The position numbers were made by a program, and so were the translations under genes. The notes below the pieces were generated by a model, which had not been told where the DNA came from, ran no database searches, and worked only from the letters and a program-made list of their open reading frames with translations. DNA of 64,000 nucleotides from Eubacteriales bacterium (lineage in GTDB: Bacteria; Bacillota; Clostridia; Oscillospirales; CAG-272): the NCBI GenBank assembly GCA_045643945.1, contig JAZRGA010000052.1, positions 15,311 to 79,310 on the forward strand, given 5' to 3'. Below, piece by piece: positions 9,199-32,553 of this stretch. Each line of letters begins with the position of its first letter. Within the stretch, counting starts at the first letter, position 1.

Positions 9199-9386
9199 AG
9201 TATTCTGTTATCTCCCAAAATTAATTGTATTTTGATGCTTTACAATAAATAGAGTTTGCGATTTTATTAAAAATATTCCTTTTCTTATTTTTTTCGCTTG
9301 AAAAAGAAATAAAAATATGATACAATTATGAAGTATAAATTAAATCAAAACGATTGTTATAATACATTTGAAAGGGAGATATAAAA

Positions 9387-10511
9387 ATGAAAGAAAAGGA
9401 GATAGCGGAAATCCGAAGACGCTACAGAAGCGATAAAAGCGGTATAAGCCGTATTTGCGGATGCTACGTTGACAGTAAAAAGGAAATAATTTCAGAGTTC
9501 GACCAAAGCCTCGGTCTTATGAGCGAGGAGGATGCAAACGGTATGCTCGGGGTTTTGAAAAAAACCTTGTCGGGACATATAGGAACTAATCTTCACGAAA
9601 TAGAATTTACTACCTTGGAAATTGCCGAGAGTGAAAATTATGCGCTTTTATCAAAGCTTAGAGCATCTGAGCTTAAGGATTCAGAGCTTCGCGCGGAGCT
9701 TTACAAAAAAATAATAGAAAATCTTGAATTTAAGGGAAGTTATTTAATACTTCTCGCACACGATAATTTCGATGTTTTCGATATAAGTGCAGATGGAATG
9801 AGAGCAGAGGATTCGACAACGGTTTATTCTTATATCGTTTGCGCAATTTGCCCCGTAAGGGAGGGAAAGGCTTCGCTTAGCTATTATTTCCCCGAGAAAT
9901 GCTTTAGAACGGTTTGCGCCGATACCGTTTTGTCAAAGCCCGAAATTGGATTTATTTTCCCTGTACTCGAGGATAGACAGACTAATATTTATAAGGCGGC
10001 ATATTATACGAAAAATCTTGAAAACAATTATTCCGAGCTTATAAACGCACTTTTTGCCAAGGAAGCGCCTATGCCTCCTAAGGAGCAAAAGCAGACCTTT
10101 GGCGAGGTTTTGCAGGAAACGGTTGGGGATGATTGCAGTCTTCGCTTGGTTTCATCCTTGCATGCACAGATTAATCAAAAGATAGAGGAAAACAAAAACG
10201 AGGGCGATGACGTTATTCCGTATATAAACAAGGACGATGCGGCGCAGATGCTCCGCTATTGCGGAATTCCCGAGGATAAGGTCGAGGCGTTCGAGAAGGG
10301 ATTTGATGAGGGATTTGGAGAAAATGCAGAAATTCCTCCAACCAACCTTTCGGGCACAAAGCAGCTTCAAATCGAAACACCCGACGTCACCGTTAAGGTA
10401 AACGCAGGGCATAGTGAGCTTGTTCAGTCAAGAATAATAGACGGTGTCAAATATATACTTATAAGAGCCGATAACGAGGTTACGGTTAACGGAATAAACA
10501 TTAAGATATAG
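9387..10511 (+). CDS. DUF4317-family protein
   Basis: The N-terminus MKEKEIAEIRRRYRSDKSGISRICGCYVDSKKEIISEF resembles the DUF4317 signature (ITRICGCYV). GGGAG RBS upstream. Confidence 0.55.
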   Translation: MKEKEIAEIRRRYRSDKSGISRICGCYVDSKKEIISEFDQSLGLMSEEDANGMLGVLKKTLSGHIGTNLHEIEFTTLEIAESENYALLSKLRASELKDSELRAELYKKIIENLEFKGSYLILLAHDNFDVFDISADGMRAEDSTTVYSYIVCAICPVREGKASLSYYFPEKCFRTVCADTVLSKPEIGFIFPVLEDRQTNIYKAAYYTKNLENNYSELINALFAKEAPMPPKEQKQTFGEVLQETVGDDCSLRLVSSLHAQINQKIEENKNEGDDVIPYINKDDAAQMLRYCGIPEDKVEAFEKGFDEGFGENAEIPPTNLSGTKQLQIETPDVTVKVNAGHSELVQSRIIDGVKYILIRADNEVTVNGINIKI

Positions 10512-26412: not shown

Positions 26413-26501
26413 GGAGAGATATCGAAGTGGTCATAACGGGGCTGACTCGAAATCAGTTTGTGCTAACGCACACGAGGGTTCGAATCCCTCTCTCTCCGCC
26501 A
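26413..26501 (+). tRNA. tRNA-Ser (anticodon CGA), class II with long variable arm, CCA encoded
   Basis: Acceptor GGAGAGA/TCTCTCC. Anticodon stem GCTGA/TCAGT with loop CTCGAAA. Variable arm GTGC-TAAC-GCAC. T-arm GAGGG-TTCGAAT-CCCTC. Discriminator G followed by CCA. Confidence 0.9.
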
Positions 26502-26505
26502 AGTG

Positions 26506-26549
26506 AAACCTAAATTGAACTTTACGTTTGATTTAGGTTTTTCTTTTTT
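26506..26549 (+). terminator. Rho-independent terminator after tRNA-Ser
   Basis: AAACCTAAAT (26506-26515) pairs with ATTTAGGTTT (26531-26540), followed by TTCTTTTTT. Confidence 0.65.
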
Positions 26550-26618
26550 ATCAAGCGAAGCGATATCGACTTGTATCAAGACAAGCACACGCCTTAGTAC
26601 CAAAAAATATCAAGCACC

Positions 26619-26647
26619 TTGACAGGTTTGCCTATATATGATATAAT
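26619..26647 (+). promoter_or_regulatory. Consensus SigA promoter of the five-gene cassette
   Basis: Perfect TTGACA (26619-26624), exactly 17 nt of spacer, then a perfect TATAAT (26642-26647). Confidence 0.6.
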
Positions 26648-26715
26648 TCTACCAGAAGTAGAATTACATTATTTTCATCATAAATCAAAAAAATTCCACA
26701 TCTACGAGATGTAGG
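26645..26715 (+). promoter_or_regulatory. Two CTAC-N5-GTAG inverted repeats (candidate operators)
   Basis: AATTCTAC-cagaa-GTAGAATT (26645-26665) overlaps the -10 box and transcription start. ATCTAC-gagat-GTAGG (26700-26715) lies ~53 bp downstream, just upstream of a possible second, extended -10 promoter (TGaTAGAAT, 26736-26744). Confidence 0.4.
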
Positions 26716-26777
26716 TTTACCTTTTTTCAAATTTGTGATAGAATTATATCAACAAAATACAGGAGGTTTTTATAGGA

Positions 26778-28691
26778 ATGTTAGATAAAAAACACAGCGT
26801 AGGAAAAACAATTGCTACACTCAGAAAAGCAAAAGGATTAACTCAAGTTGAACTTGCCGAGAAGCTCCAAGTCAGCGACAAGGCAATCAGCAAGTGGGAA
26901 AAGGATGATTCCTTTCCAAGCATAGAATTTTTCCCCGCACTTGCCGAATTATTTAATGTTAGTATTGATTATCTCATTACTGGCAAGGCTCCCGAAAAAG
27001 AAATTATTTTAATGTCAAAATTAGAATATTGTGCAAAGACGGATGATCCCTCTTTTTTAAGTAATATCAATTTAAAAGCTACAGATGAAAATGGAAAAAC
27101 AATCTTAAATTACGTAAAGCAGTATGAAAGTTATAATGTTTTTTCTGCAATTTGCGATAAGGACCCAGCTTTAATAAAGAAAATGGATTTTGAAACCGCA
27201 TTTAAGTTTTCGTTAATTGCAAACCGTATTGATATACTCAAAAAAGATATTATTTCGTGTTTAAATTTTCAAAGTTCAAATTTTATGCAACATGTATCAA
27301 AAGCAGGTATTAAAAATCTCTTTCATATTGAAGACAAATCGTACACTCGCTATATTCACGATAAAACATTATGTTGCATAAGTGATGATATGCTTGATAT
27401 AATAGTTACAAATACAAGAATTAACGATGACACAATGCAATATATATTATCAAAGCACGATATAATGACAAGCGTTTGGTATCAAATGTTCCCATATCTA
27501 ATTCATCAAAGTTATCTACATAACAATACCGAATTACTCAACAAAATATTAGAAATATCCATAGGCAACAATCAATATGCGTACGAAAAATATAAAGGAT
27601 ATTACGATACTGATTGTTTGCTACAGGGTGCGGGAAATCTGTTCGCATATTCTGATAGATATTTTGATGAGGGAAGACATGGGCTTGTTAGAATTTTAGA
27701 AAAAACTATAAAGTTAGCTCTTGTGAGAGGTGATTTTGAATTGGTAGAAAAATTCAATGAAATCAATTCAAATATAATGAATCACTATAGGCAAAGTAAA
27801 TGCTACATAGCTAATTCTGATGAAATTCGTGTTGCTAAACTTAAACAAGATAAAAACGTCAGCAACGATGAAATCGCTATACAGTCTGCAATCCATTACG
27901 GAATTATTTGCGTTGATGAATTATTGACTATTAACAATCTTGCACTTGTGAAAAAAACGTTAAATGAATATCCTATAACAATTATTGATTGGACATATAA
28001 TTTAATAAAATCTGACAATTGGAAACCTCTGTTCCAGTTTGCAGTAGATAATAAATTTAATCGCTTGGCTAATATTATATTGAATGCGAAGAAAGAAGAC
28101 GAAATATTTGAATTCCTCTGGTCAACAATTTACCAAACAAATTACTCACAACCCGATATGAGATGTGATATAAGATATCAGCTTTACTCATTAAATCAAA
28201 ATTATCTTAACACTAACAATAAGTATGGATCATATTTTCCTAATTGTATTCCGCATGCGAATTTTGATTCTGTGGTTAGTTATTTACAAAAGTGTAAAGA
28301 ACAAATTGTATTAACCTTAGAAAATCAATTTAATAAAAATAAGGCTATCAAGGATTTAACCAAAGATTATTTTGAAACCGAACTAAAAAAAGGCAATTTC
28401 AAAATTGTTATAATAGAGCTTTGCAAAAGACTGGAGGCTATTCTAAAATTCGATTATCACTATGAAGGTGATCTTTCTGATATGCTCAAACGCTATTGCG
28501 ATAAGCAATTAAAGTGGGAAGAAGACGATGGATGGGGGTATACATCATGGAGAAGGGACGAAAAGACGATAAAAGCACTTACATCATTGCGTCTCCAAAG
28601 AAACAATATTGCTCATCCCGATAAACGCATATCTAATATGAGCCTTGAAGAAATAGAATATTGCATTGATTATATTTGCAAAATGGGATAA
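26778..28691 (+). CDS. XRE-family HTH protein with a long alpha-helical repeat region and a C-terminal DUF4145/HEPN-like module (function unknown)
   Basis: AGGAGG RBS. Residues 7-68, KTIATLRKAKGLTQVELAEKLQVSDKAISKWEKDDSFPSIEFFPALAELFNVSIDYLITG, form a classic Cro/C1 HTH. The C-terminal ~95 aa read ...IIELCKRLEAILKF...TIKALTSLRLQRNNIAHPD...LEEIEYCIDYI, with the Rx4H motif at nt 28599-28616. The middle ~450 aa are helical with at least one ankyrin-like unit (TDENGKTILNYVKQYESYNVF). Confidence 0.6.
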   Translation: MLDKKHSVGKTIATLRKAKGLTQVELAEKLQVSDKAISKWEKDDSFPSIEFFPALAELFNVSIDYLITGKAPEKEIILMSKLEYCAKTDDPSFLSNINLKATDENGKTILNYVKQYESYNVFSAICDKDPALIKKMDFETAFKFSLIANRIDILKKDIISCLNFQSSNFMQHVSKAGIKNLFHIEDKSYTRYIHDKTLCCISDDMLDIIVTNTRINDDTMQYILSKHDIMTSVWYQMFPYLIHQSYLHNNTELLNKILEISIGNNQYAYEKYKGYYDTDCLLQGAGNLFAYSDRYFDEGRHGLVRILEKTIKLALVRGDFELVEKFNEINSNIMNHYRQSKCYIANSDEIRVAKLKQDKNVSNDEIAIQSAIHYGIICVDELLTINNLALVKKTLNEYPITIIDWTYNLIKSDNWKPLFQFAVDNKFNRLANIILNAKKEDEIFEFLWSTIYQTNYSQPDMRCDIRYQLYSLNQNYLNTNNKYGSYFPNCIPHANFDSVVSYLQKCKEQIVLTLENQFNKNKAIKDLTKDYFETELKKGNFKIVIIELCKRLEAILKFDYHYEGDLSDMLKRYCDKQLKWEEDDGWGYTSWRRDEKTIKALTSLRLQRNNIAHPDKRISNMSLEEIEYCIDYICKMG

Positions 28692-28702
28692 GGAGAGCGA
28701 TT

Positions 28703-29419
28703 ATGGATAAATACCAAGAATATATATTTAAAAATTCAAATAGTTATTACGGTTTATCTGTTTGCGGCAAATCTGATTTGGAAAAAGTCATTTTTGAAGA
28801 TAAAATCATATTTAAACAAAACGAAGATATAATGATAACTGATTATGTTTTTTATATAGCAAATATTGGAATTGAATCTGTTCTTTCAATCACAGACGGT
28901 AAAGAAACACCTCTAAAACAAGAGTCAGACCCCCAAAGAAGTCGCAAAAACAGATTCTTTTTACATGTTAGTTTTGATGACAAAATCGATGCTATTAAAA
29001 TTATTTTTAAAAATAATTTAGCGGACGATTTAACTTTTCCCGTTACATATGTGTATGCCGATAAAGAGAAATTTTATGCCAAAAGAGAAAAAGAGCGTAA
29101 AGAAAAATTAATAAAAAAAGCAAATATCAAAGTGACTACCGGCGCGGATTTGGTTAATATTTATTTTCAGCCTTGTTGTAATGATTATGCGCGAACTGAA
29201 ATTATTCTTTATAAAGATGATATGATGATTGCAAAATATAAAGTGAATGCAGAAAGTTTCTTTAAATCAATAAGCGGGTTGGCGTACGGCAAATACATGT
29301 TTACGTTAAAACAGCTTGATTCGAAGGAAAACATTCTTATTGAAACAGCGAAAAAAGCGTTTATTATTAGTGCTCCAGAAATTGATCCAGATGATTTTAT
29401 TCCTTATACAGTTATATGA
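28703..29419 (+). CDS. Hypothetical protein, predicted beta-rich, two-lobed with a KREKERKEKLIKK linker
   Basis: Start at ATG 28703, 7 nt after AAGGAGAG and 11 nt after the upstream stop. 238 aa. No family recognised. The stop overlaps the next start (ATGA at 29416-29419). Confidence 0.55.
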   Translation: MDKYQEYIFKNSNSYYGLSVCGKSDLEKVIFEDKIIFKQNEDIMITDYVFYIANIGIESVLSITDGKETPLKQESDPQRSRKNRFFLHVSFDDKIDAIKIIFKNNLADDLTFPVTYVYADKEKFYAKREKERKEKLIKKANIKVTTGADLVNIYFQPCCNDYARTEIILYKDDMMIAKYKVNAESFFKSISGLAYGKYMFTLKQLDSKENILIETAKKAFIISAPEIDPDDFIPYTVI

Positions 29420-29973
29420 ATAACAAATATTTAAAAGTACAATTTAATTCTGATATTGCAAAGGGCAACGATGATGTTCGTATTTCATTTTATGCAAATA
29501 TCGGATTTTTCATTGAAGTTGCACAAATGTTTGAATTTAATTTGCGTAAACTGATATGTTACGAAAGATCTGTTAAGGAAATAGAACAAGGCGAGATCAC
29601 CAAAGAAAATGTGGAACGTATATGCGCAAAGTACGATCAGTATTATGATGACACATATTTTAAAAAATCCAAATTCACTTTAGGAAAGCTTATCGGAGAA
29701 TCAAAAAGTGATTCCTCGATCCCGAAGGAGGTCTTCGATTTCCTTGATGAGTTGAATGATTTTAGAGTAAATCTTGTCCATAAGATTTTTCAAAACAATA
29801 TCATTAGACATTATTTTGATTCTGCAGAATTTGTCCTTGAATATACGAACAAACGAATTATCCCTATGACGGATAAAGCGATTGAAATTAATAAAGTTAT
29901 CATAGAAATAATTGATTTATATCGTAATGACTTGCATGACTATAAAAAGCAAGTTGGAATAAAAATCAACTAA
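29416..29973 (+). CDS. Hypothetical small helical protein with a DUF4145/HEPN-like Rx4H motif
   Basis: 185 aa. GFFIEVAQMFEFNLRKLI ... TLGKLIGESKSDSSIPKEVFDFLDELNDFRVNLVHKIF, with the Rx4H motif (R-VNLV-H) at nt 29764-29781. Translationally coupled to the preceding gene. Confidence 0.5.
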   Translation: MNNKYLKVQFNSDIAKGNDDVRISFYANIGFFIEVAQMFEFNLRKLICYERSVKEIEQGEITKENVERICAKYDQYYDDTYFKKSKFTLGKLIGESKSDSSIPKEVFDFLDELNDFRVNLVHKIFQNNIIRHYFDSAEFVLEYTNKRIIPMTDKAIEINKVIIEIIDLYRNDLHDYKKQVGIKIN

Positions 29974-30091
29974 TGATTTTCTTGATAATTTGATGGGTTA
30001 AACTATCCGATTTCAATACAATCGAGGCGGGAGAATCCAAGTTCAATTTATATACTTATATACTCAAAGAAGTGACAGGAGGTGACCGCTA

Positions 30092-30583
30092 TTGTTTTAT
30101 GTTTTGATGATTGTGATAGCGTTTTACAATCTTTTCTTATATACAATTTTTCGTAGCGGCATATATTCCTATTTTCGTTTATCAAAAATGAGCAAAACAT
30201 ACATTAAGAAAAACAGAAAAGGATTTATCAATTATTGGTTGTATTATTCAATCAATAAGCAGAACTCGCTTGGAGCTTTATACGGTTTAAATATTGCTTT
30301 CTTTATAGCCACGGTTACTTTCATGTTTTTTACGATTGCATTGGGATATATTAGGGTGATTCAGCCAATACTTTTTGTATTTTCTATCCTAGTTTGCATA
30401 ATAGAGATACCGTGTATGATTATTGCTTCAATTCACAGCTCCAACGAGGATTATGGAAAACCGTTTGTTTTTCTTGCAAAACGAAAGGGTTTCAGAGGAT
30501 ACACCAGCTCGCTGATTGAATGTCTATCTTGGATATTGACTGTTCTTTTGATTTATTTATCTTTTCAAATATTATTACGATGA
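30092..30583 (+). CDS. Hypothetical 4-TM membrane protein
   Basis: TTG start 9 nt after GGAGG (30078-30082). Hydrophobic segments MFYVLMIVIAFYNLFLYTIF, LNIAFFIATVTFMFFTIALGYI, ILFVFSILVCIIEIPCMIIASI, LIECLSWILTVLLIYLSF. Confidence 0.5.
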   Translation: MFYVLMIVIAFYNLFLYTIFRSGIYSYFRLSKMSKTYIKKNRKGFINYWLYYSINKQNSLGALYGLNIAFFIATVTFMFFTIALGYIRVIQPILFVFSILVCIIEIPCMIIASIHSSNEDYGKPFVFLAKRKGFRGYTSSLIECLSWILTVLLIYLSFQILLR

Positions 30584-30640
30584 TTTATCATTTTTTATCA
30601 AATATTTCGCAACACAACTATAAAAGTATTGAGAGGTTAT

Positions 30641-30916
30641 ATGTCACACAGTAAATTTGCAAAACGAGGAAAGTCGTTATACATTGAAAAATGGAATCCG
30701 TCCGCTAAAAGATTTATTAATACTTGCATCATTTGCGGAGCGCAAGGGTACAACCCGAGTATTGACGATGCGGGATTTGTTTATGATAATGAGCAAAAGA
30801 TTGCTAATTTTGAGCATCGAGCCATTCGGGATGAGCTTAAGCGCACTTTAAATCCATTATCATTAGATTCTTTGGGGCGTTGCGACAATTGCGCAAGGCT
30901 AATGGAAAAGGATTGA
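30641..30916 (+). CDS. Hypothetical small protein with a CxxC...CxxC (zinc-ribbon-like) pair
   Basis: MSHSKFAKRGKS... with CIICGAQGY and CDNCARLM about 50 residues apart. GAGAGG RBS. The track start at 30629 is rejected in favour of ATG 30641. Confidence 0.45.
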   Translation: MSHSKFAKRGKSLYIEKWNPSAKRFINTCIICGAQGYNPSIDDAGFVYDNEQKIANFEHRAIRDELKRTLNPLSLDSLGRCDNCARLMEKD

Positions 30917-30940
30917 TGTTTTTTTGATTTTAATAATTAA

Positions 30941-30972
30941 AGGGTGTTTCAAATGTTGATTTGATACACCCT
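30941..30972. terminator. Bidirectional hairpin closing the cassette (convergent with the spoVB-like gene)
   Basis: AGGGTGTTTCAAAT (30941-30954) pairs with ATTTGATACACCCT (30959-30972): 14 bp with one T-T mismatch and a GTTG loop. Confidence 0.55.
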
Positions 30973-30987
30973 AATTGTTTATGACGT

Positions 30988-32553
30988 TTATGCCGAAAGA
31001 AAGTTTTTAATGGCTTTTTTTATTCCTTTTGGTGAGATAGCTTTGAGGAGTATGAGAATAGTAAGATAGATAACCGTTATAATAACGATATGAAGCGCTA
31101 TTTCGAGTCTGTTTTCTGCGTAGGTATTGAGATTATATAAGATAAACGCGGTTGCAGATGTAGCGCATATTATTCCCATTATCGGTTTTATTATCCAGTC
31201 GAATATTTTAAATTTGATTTTTGTGGCGCACAAAAGCTTAGTAATACTAAGTGTCGCATTTACCGTTTCGGTAAAATAAACCGTGATGATATAGCCGATA
31301 ATTCCGTAACGTGGCAAGAGCATCCATACTAATATTACCGATAGCAGGGCATCGACTATATTTATTATCATACAGTAAAATTGATGTCCGAGTCCTTTGA
31401 GTATAGAGTCTACCGATGTATCGAGATACATTATAGGCACAAGCGGAGCGATAAAAATAATATATTTAATTATATTTTTATCAGTGAAAAGTACAAATCC
31501 AAATTCATTCGCAAGGCATATGAATATTCCCGCTACACAGACTGAGTATATTAATACGGTTTTTAATACCTTACTTGTAATACGTTCAATGCGCTCAAAA
31601 TCGCCGCTCGCTGCGGACTCGGATATTTCGGGGACAAGTAAACCTGCAAATGATGAGGATATTGCAGAGGGAAAGAGAACAAGCGGAAAAATTATACTGT
31701 GAAGACTTCCGTAGGTGGCGAGTGAGGCATCGCGCCCCGAGCCGCTTTTTTGTAAGCCCCAGGGAATAAGTAGATGCTCGATTGTAACGAGTGCCGAGCG
31801 AACATATGCGCTAAAAGCAACTGGCAGAGTAAAGGGAATAAGCTTTTTAGCAAGCGAGTCGTCGGCGTGACCCTTGCTTTTTTGTCTTTTTATATCTATT
31901 ACATAAGAGAGTATATGAATAATAAACGAGGAAATCTCTGCAATAGACCCGCCCCAAATTACCGCAAGACAAGCACTCTCTACATCGCTTGCAACTGTTG
32001 CGCTCAGTAAATATATGCAAGAAAATATTTTAATGGCGTAACCGAAAACCTGAACCGCCGCATTTTTTTGTACCTTTCTTACCGCTACAAAATATCCGCT
32101 TATCGAGGATGAAAGAGCGATAGGAACTAATGTATAAGAAAGGACCTTTAAAGCCGTCAACGTTCGCATATCCTTTAGAATGCGTTCCGCAATAATTGGA
32201 GAAAGCAGGTACAAGCCTATTGATACCGCAAGGCTGATAAAAAATGCAAACGCAAGACTTTTTTTCATTATCGCTTTAACGGTAGAGGCTCGATTTTTTT
32301 CCTCAAGTCCTCCAAGAGCCTCAGAAACAAGCTTTGTTGTTGCAAGACTTATTCCCGAGGTTGCAAGGGTCAAAGCGAAGCCGTAAACGCTTGAAACCAG
32401 AGTAAAGAGTCCCATAGCGACCGTACCGATTTTATTTGTTAAATATACGTTAAACGCTACCGATATATAACGAATGGCAATCGATACCGCCGTCATTAAA
32501 AATCCGTTTATAAAAAATCGTTTTAGTCTGTCCAAGAAAACACTGCCTTTCAA
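30988..32553 (-). CDS. spoVB: MOP-superfamily flippase, SpoVB/MurJ-like polysaccharide or peptidoglycan-precursor exporter
   Basis: 521 aa with about 14 TM segments. The N-terminal region FINGFLMTAVSIAIRYISVAFNVYLTNKIGTVAMGLF... is typical of stage V sporulation protein B / YabM-like proteins. The annotated start is a TTG without a clear SD, so the start is uncertain. Confidence 0.65.
   Translation of the reverse strand: MKGSVFLDRLKRFFINGFLMTAVSIAIRYISVAFNVYLTNKIGTVAMGLFTLVSSVYGFALTLATSGISLATTKLVSEALGGLEEKNRASTVKAIMKKSLAFAFFISLAVSIGLYLLSPIIAERILKDMRTLTALKVLSYTLVPIALSSSISGYFVAVRKVQKNAAVQVFGYAIKIFSCIYLLSATVASDVESACLAVIWGGSIAEISSFIIHILSYVIDIKRQKSKGHADDSLAKKLIPFTLPVAFSAYVRSALVTIEHLLIPWGLQKSGSGRDASLATYGSLHSIIFPLVLFPSAISSSFAGLLVPEISESAASGDFERIERITSKVLKTVLIYSVCVAGIFICLANEFGFVLFTDKNIIKYIIFIAPLVPIMYLDTSVDSILKGLGHQFYCMIINIVDALLSVILVWMLLPRYGIIGYIITVYFTETVNATLSITKLLCATKIKFKIFDWIIKPIMGIICATSATAFILYNLNTYAENRLEIALHIVIITVIYLTILILLKAISPKGIKKAIKNFLSA

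Follow-up and report, generated by a model that had tools for sequence, protein, structure and literature searches.

HEPN domains generally pair to form an active site. The described family closest to the effector domain of the locus reported here is RiboL-PSP-HEPN (PF18735), which has a conserved Rx4H motif, is distantly related to AbiD/AbiF and has been linked to mRNA cleavage and to Abi proteins; its reported contexts include a fusion to an L-PSP endoribonuclease and a ParB operon, and fusions of ankyrin repeats to HEPN domains have also been listed (Anantharaman et al. 2013, PMC3710099). The present analysis concerns a stretch of 64,000 nucleotides (nt) from an Eubacteriales bacterium (contig JAZRGA010000052.1, positions 15,311 to 79,310; hereafter, the window), in which five genes of the same strand, G1 to G5, follow a tRNA-Ser(cga) gene. 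We propose, with a probability of about 0.6, that the region 26587-30071 of the window, which carries G1, G2 and G3, is a self-contained and autoregulated three-gene conflict module, i.e. an abortive-infection-type anti-phage (or toxin) system with a HEPN ribonuclease (RNase) as its effector. This proposal is based on the invariance of the HEPN motif, the obligate association with an immunoglobulin (Ig)-like partner, the fast evolution of the G1 repeats and of the N-terminal domain of G2, the swappable third effector, the replacement of the block within one species, its AT-richness and its adjacency to tRNA or tmRNA genes. A first-pass annotation of the window had suggested an undescribed HEPN-type module made of all five genes: this candidate stands, but with three genes rather than five and with a function deduced from sequence.

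G1 (26778-28691, + strand, open reading frame (ORF) of 637 amino acids (aa)) comprises: (i) an XRE helix-turn-helix (HTH) domain (aa 8-68, nt 26799-26981, + strand), already recognized in the first-pass annotation and matching HTH_3 with E = 3.6e-14, (ii) an alpha-helical repeat domain (approximately aa 81-480, nt 27018-28217, + strand) defined from an AlphaFold2 model and (iii) a C-terminal HEPN domain (aa 496-637, nt 28263-28688, + strand) with the motif RNNIAH (aa 608-613, nt 28599-28616, + strand). In the AlphaFold2 model of G1 (mean predicted local distance difference test (pLDDT) score of 83), the HTH is followed by about 400 residues of paired short helices and by a helical C-terminal domain, whose helices span residues 496-524, 529-537, 541-558, 566-577, 595-612 and 623-635, with a beta-hairpin inserted at 579-593. 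No variation occurs at R608, N609 and H613 in 58 homologues sharing 42-88% identity with the G1 of the window, and this invariant RNxxxH suggests that the C-terminal HEPN domain is an RNase. RiboL-PSP-HEPN is the best profile family for this C-terminus: 29 of the 58 members of the G1 family match it (best E = 3.6e-6) and G1 shares its R-N-x-x-x-H. However, unlike the reported members of RiboL-PSP-HEPN, G1 is not fused to L-PSP, has no ParB in its operon and has a tandem-Ig partner. None of the five proteins matched the Abi_2 (AbiD/AbiF) profile, even with E values of up to 1 allowed, and searches of the PDB with profiles or single sequences of the G1 C-terminus gave chance matches only. The DUF4145 label initially given to the HEPN-like ends is weak: the best HEPN matches are to RiboL-PSP-HEPN for G1 and to HepT-like proteins for distant relatives of G3.

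The three parts of G1 evolve at different rates, the mean pairwise identity within the family being 78% for the HTH, which is the most conserved part, 45-48% for the repeats and 56% for the HEPN domain. In one locus (L040, 570-3483), G1 is shortened to 318 aa: its HTH is followed by a middle region of reduced size and by a HEPN domain with RRVRNGLVH. This gene precedes G2 and then the gene of a TIR protein that has a V4R-like C-terminus. This short G1 indicates that the long repeat domain is dispensable in some lineages. The succession of helical repeats and of a C-terminal HEPN domain is reminiscent of effectors joining sensor repeats to a HEPN domain in general and, in particular, of RNase L, which is composed of ankyrin repeats, a pseudokinase and a KEN/HEPN RNase and whose activation by dimerisation would have a counterpart in the reading that we favour. 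In contrast to RNase L, G1 has no kinase-like domain and shows no sign of a nucleotide ligand, and it possesses a DNA-binding HTH and an Ig-like partner. The Foldseek comparison of the middle region of G1 with the ankyrin repeat domain of TRPV6 was weak (TM score of 0.42 on the target), and none of the 58 members of the G1 family contains Pfam Ank repeats. We consider this likeness to RNase L as a resemblance only. With the full-length G1, the Foldseek results were dominated by the HTH and, beyond it, consisted of weak matches to RRNPP-type proteins and of this weak ankyrin match.

The HTH of G1 also matches the models RmrA, CapH and HTH_VI (E from 1e-11 to 6e-7) and thereby recalls defence systems regulated by a fused or adjacent XRE HTH, such as the CBASS systems encoding CapH or those of the RmrA type, but these matches are confined to the first 70-110 residues of G1. 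In PADLOC-DB 2.0, no system was matched by the locus: G1 was recognized at the level of its HTH only, G2 and G4 gave one chance-level match each (E of about 0.01), and G3 and G5 gave none. The four profile libraries that were searched (PADLOC 2.0, Pfam, NCBIfam and PHROGs) returned the HTH and sub-threshold HEPN matches only, with no other assignment for G2 to G5, and literature searches for this architecture found no description of it. The initial impression that the gene combination does not correspond to any system that can be named is supported to this extent.

G2 (28703-29419, + strand, ORF of 238 aa counted from its ATG) begins 11 nt after the end of G1. In its AlphaFold2 model (mean pLDDT of 90), a long helix (aa 121-140) connects two beta-sandwich domains that are Ig/FN3-like. 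The protein has no signal peptide and is cytoplasmic. Foldseek searches with G2, including those of the PDB and viral libraries, retrieved generic tandem FN3/Ig matches only, and none of the 477 clusters of G2 homologues found in metagenomes contains a Pfam domain. The N-terminal domain is the more divergent of the two, with a mean identity within the family of 43% vs 64% for the C-terminal domain. In almost all of the approximately 70 loci, G1 lies directly 5′ of G2, about 11-20 nt away from it, and G2 can be regarded as an obligate partner of G1 as judged from sequence comparisons.

G3 (29416-29973, + strand, ORF of 185 aa) overlaps the stop codon of G2 by its start (ATGA), so that the tight coupling of the first three genes reported in the first-pass annotation is confirmed. 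It carries the motif RVNLVH (aa 117-122, nt 29764-29781, + strand), and N114, R117 and H122 (N114-x2-R117-x4-H122) are invariant in 36 G3 sequences. The two Rx4H motifs previously noticed in the locus are therefore both real and invariant in their own families, but that of G3 lies in the middle of the protein and not at its end. Three results point to a HEPN domain: (i) a local alignment of the G3 profile with the C-terminus of G1 by hhalign (E = 0.0046) places the two Rx4H motifs in register, (ii) one member of the G3 family matches PF18735 (E = 2.5e-4), and (iii) some of the most distant relatives of G3 match the HepT-like family PF01934 across the motif, one of them, P0452, with 25.1 bits, above the cutoff of 23.5 bits. 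We consider with moderate confidence that G3 is a small stand-alone HEPN domain. Among 1.84 billion proteins, its profile retrieved just 60 cluster representatives. In the PDB, profiles or single sequences of G3 and of two alternative third-gene proteins gave chance matches only. Two atypical G3 relatives were observed: P0321 (295 aa), in which an XRE HTH is joined to a G3-like domain, and P0402, in which the first part of G3 is joined to the C-terminus of a C-5 cytosine methylase; they could be real fusions or chimeras due to assembly or recombination. An apparent match of G3 to a 633-aa protein (P0416) was discarded as a low-complexity repeat artefact.

By its small HEPN protein with an Rx4H motif, the match of distant G3 relatives to HepT-like proteins, and its compact operon with a presumed autoregulation, the module resembles the HepT-MntA (HEPN-MNT) type II toxin-antitoxin systems. 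However, the HepT model does not recognize G3 itself, and it is G1, the large HEPN protein, and not an antitoxin, that bears the HTH. The module does not belong to these systems, because it has no MNT partner: no nucleotidyltransferase domain was found in G1 to G5, and G2, which occupies a place next to the HEPN genes, is a tandem beta-sandwich protein.

The third position of the module is variable. In 16 of 28 distinct cases, it is occupied by a G3-type HEPN protein, which comes in subtypes of 185 and 158 aa. In other loci, it is occupied by a TIR_2 protein (L040, E = 3e-15), by a DUF4238 protein (L054, E = 2e-14) or by unrelated unknown proteins (L029/L044, L067 and L033), or there is no gene at this position. 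From their N-terminal motifs, the third genes of L029/L044 and of L067 were considered as possible DEDD exonucleases; no tool supported this assignment and they are not detectably related to each other.

The comparison of strains belonging to the same species as that of the window delineates the module. Two conspecific contigs (L072 and L073) keep the order of the five genes, and their identity to the window is 97.8% from position 29414, at G3, to the right. On the left of G3, only the promoter and HTH region (26587-27159) can be aligned by blastn, with 83% identity, the rest of G1 and all of G2 being unalignable. At the protein level, the identities with the window are 46% for G1, 33% for G2, 92% for G3, 96% for G4 and 100% for G5. 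The sensor/effector part of G1 is thus swapped together with G2, as a pair. Four other conspecific contigs carry, instead of G1-G3, a gene encoding a NERD-domain protein (L074, 72-644; L076, 61-783; L078, 81-824; L079, 3-476) that ends 6 nt before G4; these ORFs show a weak similarity to the NERD portions of MADS6 and PglW, two defence kinases. The blastn comparisons place the left junction of the shared module at 26587, where the similarity to L072/L073 begins, and the right junction of the variable slot at 30071, i.e. 21 nt before G4, where the similarity to the strains carrying the NERD-domain gene begins. The region located 5′ of G1 in L072 (1-5900) encodes an rve-family insertion sequence (IS) transposase, a PP2C phosphatase and a protein combining NERD and SF1-helicase domains, and contains neither spoVT nor tRNA-Ser, indicating that this part of the genome was rearranged between strains. 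Variable presence, which the initial examination of the sequence had raised as a point to check, is therefore observed within one species: some strains have a NERD-domain gene in place of the block, and others a strongly diverged allele of it.

The strain comparison implies that the variable slot is 26587-30071 and that the two following genes, G4 (30092-30583, + strand, ORF of 163 aa with a TTG start) and G5 (30641-30916, + strand, ORF of 91 aa with CxxC...CxxC), are residents of the locus. G4 encodes a membrane protein with three to four hydrophobic segments according to a Kyte-Doolittle scan. No homologue of G4 was found beside any other G1-G2 locus, and G4 is kept at about 96-98% identity in the strains where G1-G3 is replaced by the NERD-domain gene, of which G4 may originally have been the partner. 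An identical G5 protein is encoded by 22 contigs of the same species, with or without G1-G3. A G5 homologue was found at one other G1-G2 locus only (L022, 9154-9441), in another species; it is 64% identical to G5, is separated from the module by an unrelated radical-SAM gene and also has an HD-domain gene beside it. G5 is a small conserved protein unrelated to the module. Since both genes are retained when a NERD-domain gene replaces G1-G3, G4 and G5 are resident neighbours left behind when the content of the slot changes, and not components of the module.

The alternative proposed initially, in which G1 to G5, including the four-transmembrane and the CxxC proteins, would form a single defence cassette inserted at tRNA-Ser, could be supported by the presence of all five genes on the same strand between two hairpins, by the AT-richness of G4 (G+C of 0.311), by the five-gene order shared by L072 and L073, and by the G5 homologue found about 1.7 kb 3′ of a G1-G2-G3-like module in L022. 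It is nevertheless largely refuted by the strain comparison and appears very improbable: G4 is absent from all other G1-G2 loci, G4 and G5 remain 96-100% identical while the NERD-domain gene replaces G1-G3, the G+C content of G5 is host-like, an unrelated radical-SAM gene splits the module from G5 in L022, and at other loci the module stops with G2 or with the third gene. Nothing supports a participation of the membrane protein G4. The shared and variable unit extends from 26587 to about 30071, and the real unit of this locus is G1-G3 and not the five genes.

The other features of the locus were found as first described. The five ORFs lie on the same strand beside tRNA-Ser(cga), which was identified by ARAGORN and by Rfam (tRNA, 54 bits) at 26413-26501 (+ strand), outside the module, whose start is 276 nt further. 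Both hairpins that bracket the five genes are real: (i) a terminator-like hairpin 3′ of the tRNA gene (26505-26541) and (ii) a hairpin located between the convergent G5 and spoVB genes (30941-30972; fold of -20.5 kcal/mol, z = -4.85 compared to shuffled sequences), which is probably a bidirectional terminator. The shift towards AT is corroborated by sliding-window analysis, with a G+C content of 0.28-0.33 in the block vs 0.38-0.49 in its flanks and 0.396 in the whole window. By gene, the G+C content is 0.309 for G1, 0.291 for G2, 0.299 for G3, 0.311 for G4 and 0.399 for G5, the last value being host-like, unlike those of G1-G4. With a G+C content of 0.304, the region 26587-30071 is essentially the 3.5-kb stretch of lowest G+C in the window (sliding minimum of 0.301 at 27001). 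The locus does not have the features of an integrative island targeting a tRNA gene: no integrase is encoded in 26500-31000, the far border carries no copy of the 3′ end of the tRNA gene, with short matches at chance level only, and no direct repeat that could be an att site was found at the borders of the module.

The region located upstream of G1 contains two promoters identified by a promoter scan. P1 (26619-26647, + strand) has the hexamers TTGACA and TATAAT separated by 17 nt, with 12 of 12 matches to the consensus, and a TG extension; its -10 hexamer is kept in most homologous loci. It is overlapped, at its -10 hexamer and at the expected transcription start, by the operator O1 (26645-26665), a palindrome with the sequence AATTCTAC-cagaa-GTAGAATT. 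TCTAC and GTAGA of O1 do not vary in any of the 30 aligned loci; the identity of the G1 proteins of these loci to that of the window is only 25-50%. A second operator-like site, TCTAC-gagat-GTAGG (26701-26720), has GTAGGTTTAC (26711-26720) at its end and extends into the -35 hexamer of P2. Of 47 distinct upstream regions, 37 contain GTAGGTTTAC, whose distance from O1 is constant at about 63 nt. P2 (26716-26744, + strand) has the hexamers TTTACC and TAGAAT separated by 17 nt, with an extended -10 (TGnTAnAAT), and both hexamers are conserved in the alignment of upstream regions (A5). A ribosome-binding site, AGGAGG, is located at 26761-26766 (+ strand). Across the loci (L001-L083, alignment A5), the non-coding region 26619-26766 is far more conserved than the encoded proteins. 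The conserved leader had no match in Rfam, and RNAalifold detected only the invariant palindrome, with no covariation; O1 is therefore read as a DNA operator and not as an RNA element. O1 is the predicted binding site of the HTH domain of G1. Since the HTH is the most conserved part of G1 and conserved operator sites lie over the promoters, autoregulation by G1 is a well-founded inference. Further upstream, the sequence AGCGAAGCGA..CTTGTATCAAGACAAGCACACGCC, found in the window between the tRNA terminator and the module (26553-26600), recurs 5′ of G1 in another species (L049) and could be a remnant of a module border.

A scan of one genome per species identified 52 loci, nearly all of them from uncultured Clostridia of the gut or rumen (Christensenellaceae, Scatosoma, Coproplasma and others), and more than 120 full-length homologues of G1 were found in metagenomes. 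The G1-G2 loci occupy non-syntenic genomic positions, and their neighbours are diverse and mostly housekeeping genes. Unlike what was first suggested, the module as a rule lies outside defence islands. Some of the loci adjoin mobility genes, i.e. serine recombinases and a relaxase, a tyrosine integrase or an IS transposase. A tRNA or tmRNA gene is located within about 100-520 nt of the module in eight of 56 other loci, either upstream (L026, L027, L033 and L042) or downstream (L032, L035, L046 and L047), which exceeds the proportion expected by chance, roughly estimated at 2%. These tRNA- or tmRNA-adjacent modules are not accompanied by any integrase or att repeat. Among GenBank phages and PLSDB plasmids, no G2 homologue was found and the matches of G1 cover its HTH only; IMG/VR contains only two related contigs. 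Therefore, phages and plasmids are not the usual carriers of the module.

Decayed copies of the module exist. In two of the loci (L037, 10046-11049, and L056), G1 is gone and G2 is reduced to its C-terminal half while G3 is intact (56-82% identical to that of the window). In L001 (772-3984), G1 is 90.6% identical to that of the window at the nucleotide level, and its stop codon is immediately followed, in place of G2, by a tyrosine integrase gene on the other strand. In L058, the module lies directly 5′ of a spoVT homologue (9241-9948), and homologues of dus or gpmI are found near the module in four species (L023, L032, L058 and L059). These neighbours hint at a shared hot spot or at an old position in part of the clade. 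A genome encoding a SpoVT protein of the same 90%-identity cluster has a different synteny and does not bear on this slot.

Another explanation of the locus is that G1 is a lineage-specific transcription regulator of the RRNPP type, with a housekeeping or developmental role (for example in sporulation, in the spoVT/spoVB setting), and that the HEPN domains would bind a ligand or RNA without being toxic. Such a regulator would agree with the best full-length Foldseek matches of G1, which are ComR, PlcR and Rgg, i.e. regulators combining an HTH and TPRs, with the strong conservation of the HTH and of the operators, with the mostly housekeeping neighbours and with the proximity of the module to a spoVT homologue in L058. 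However, we consider it improbable. Apart from the HTH, the similarity to ComR, PlcR and Rgg is poor (TM score of about 0.2, E of about 0.01), the operon has no conserved gene for a small peptide and no signalling-peptide gene is evident. Furthermore, the catalytic Rx4H residues are invariant, the positions of the module are non-syntenic, and the module is absent or replaced in some conspecific strains and decayed elsewhere. Lastly, identities of 46% for G1 and 33% for G2 within one species are far too low for a housekeeping regulator.

In the anti-phage module that we favour, the HTH of G1 would bind TCTAC-N5-GTAGA over P1 and the second site at P2, both observed and conserved upstream of G1, and would keep the expression of the operon low and self-limited. 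The C-terminal HEPN domain of G1, with its invariant RNxxxH, would be an RNase whose activity is probably gated by oligomerisation, since HEPN domains generally need pairing. The repeats of G1 and the N-terminal beta-sandwich of G2, which are the fastest-evolving parts and are exchanged jointly between strains, may form a specific interface. G2 would either hold the HEPN domain inactive or recognize a phage protein, and infection would free the RNase and lead to cell arrest. G3, which occupies a slot of variable content, could be an auxiliary effector or a pairing partner of the HEPN domain of G1, and other lineages would use TIR, DUF4238 or other genes in third position.

A selfish module of the toxin-antitoxin or addiction type, devoid of any dedicated anti-phage role, is a less likely explanation. 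In this case, the HEPN domain of G1, and possibly G3, would be the toxin, G2 would be an antitoxin binding G1, the fused HTH would ensure a conditional autoregulation, which is typical of type II systems, and the module would persist and spread because its loss is costly. The autoregulatory layout of the HTH with conserved operators over the promoters, the tight coupling of G1 and G2 and their swapping as a pair, the HEPN toxin domain with its invariant Rx4H, the occasional location in integrative elements with recombinases and a relaxase, and neighbours that are mostly housekeeping genes rather than defence islands are all consistent with this explanation. However, to our knowledge, known HEPN toxin-antitoxin pairs use an MNT nucleotidyltransferase as antitoxin, and the locus does not encode any such protein. 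In addition, a protein of 637 aa with 400 aa of fast-evolving repeats resembles a sensor-effector more than a minimal toxin, the TIR and DUF4238 proteins of the third slot are more typical of defence systems, and the NERD-domain gene found in the slot of conspecific strains recalls the content of defence hot spots. It should also be emphasized that the defence and the toxin-antitoxin explanations are compatible and not mutually exclusive.

Several observations weigh against the conflict module that we propose. RNase activity, toxicity and phage resistance are all predictions. The match of the G1 of the window (aa 502-636) to HEPN_RiboL-PSP (PF18735) reaches 21.6 bits, under the cutoff of 28.4 bits, and the assignment of G3 as a HEPN protein depends on weak profile matches (E = 0.0046 with G1, and a transitive link). 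The fold of G2 is generic and hints at no activity, and the fusion of an HTH to a putative toxin domain is unusual for toxin-antitoxin systems. In L040, the TIR gene is located 174 nt from G2 and possibly belongs to a separate transcription unit. Among 148 neighbouring proteins, the defence-type ones are limited to one methyltransferase, two TIR proteins and one PDC-S27. Finally, the module is confined to one clade, and its patchiness could in part be due to vertical inheritance accompanied by frequent losses.

We also suggest, tentatively and with less assurance than for the locus of the window, that G1-G2 represents a previously unrecognized anti-phage family of uncultured gut Clostridia, including metagenome-assembled genomes of the Christensenellaceae type. 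In this family, a self-repressing HTH, a rapidly diversifying repeat sensor and a HEPN RNase would be united in one protein, acting with a cytoplasmic tandem-Ig subunit that provides specificity or restraint and with a plug-in third effector (small HEPN, TIR, DUF4238 or others). The sensor/Ig pair would pass from strain to strain as a cassette, with no change of the regulatory region or of the third gene.

At the level of annotation, this work shows that an AT-rich block of same-strand genes beside a tRNA gene is not necessarily a single system: here, two of the five genes do not belong with the other three. The G2 and G3 families have neither a Pfam domain nor a match to a PADLOC model. On sequence grounds, regulation (HTH and operator), sensing (fast-evolving repeats and Ig-like partner) and killing (HEPN) would be separable in this module. 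The alleles exchanged naturally among strains single out the regions that may set specificity, and the conserved operator gives a direct handle on autoregulation. If confirmed, this module would represent an immune or toxin system based on a HEPN RNase in anaerobes of the gut, which are nearly absent from experimental defence catalogues.

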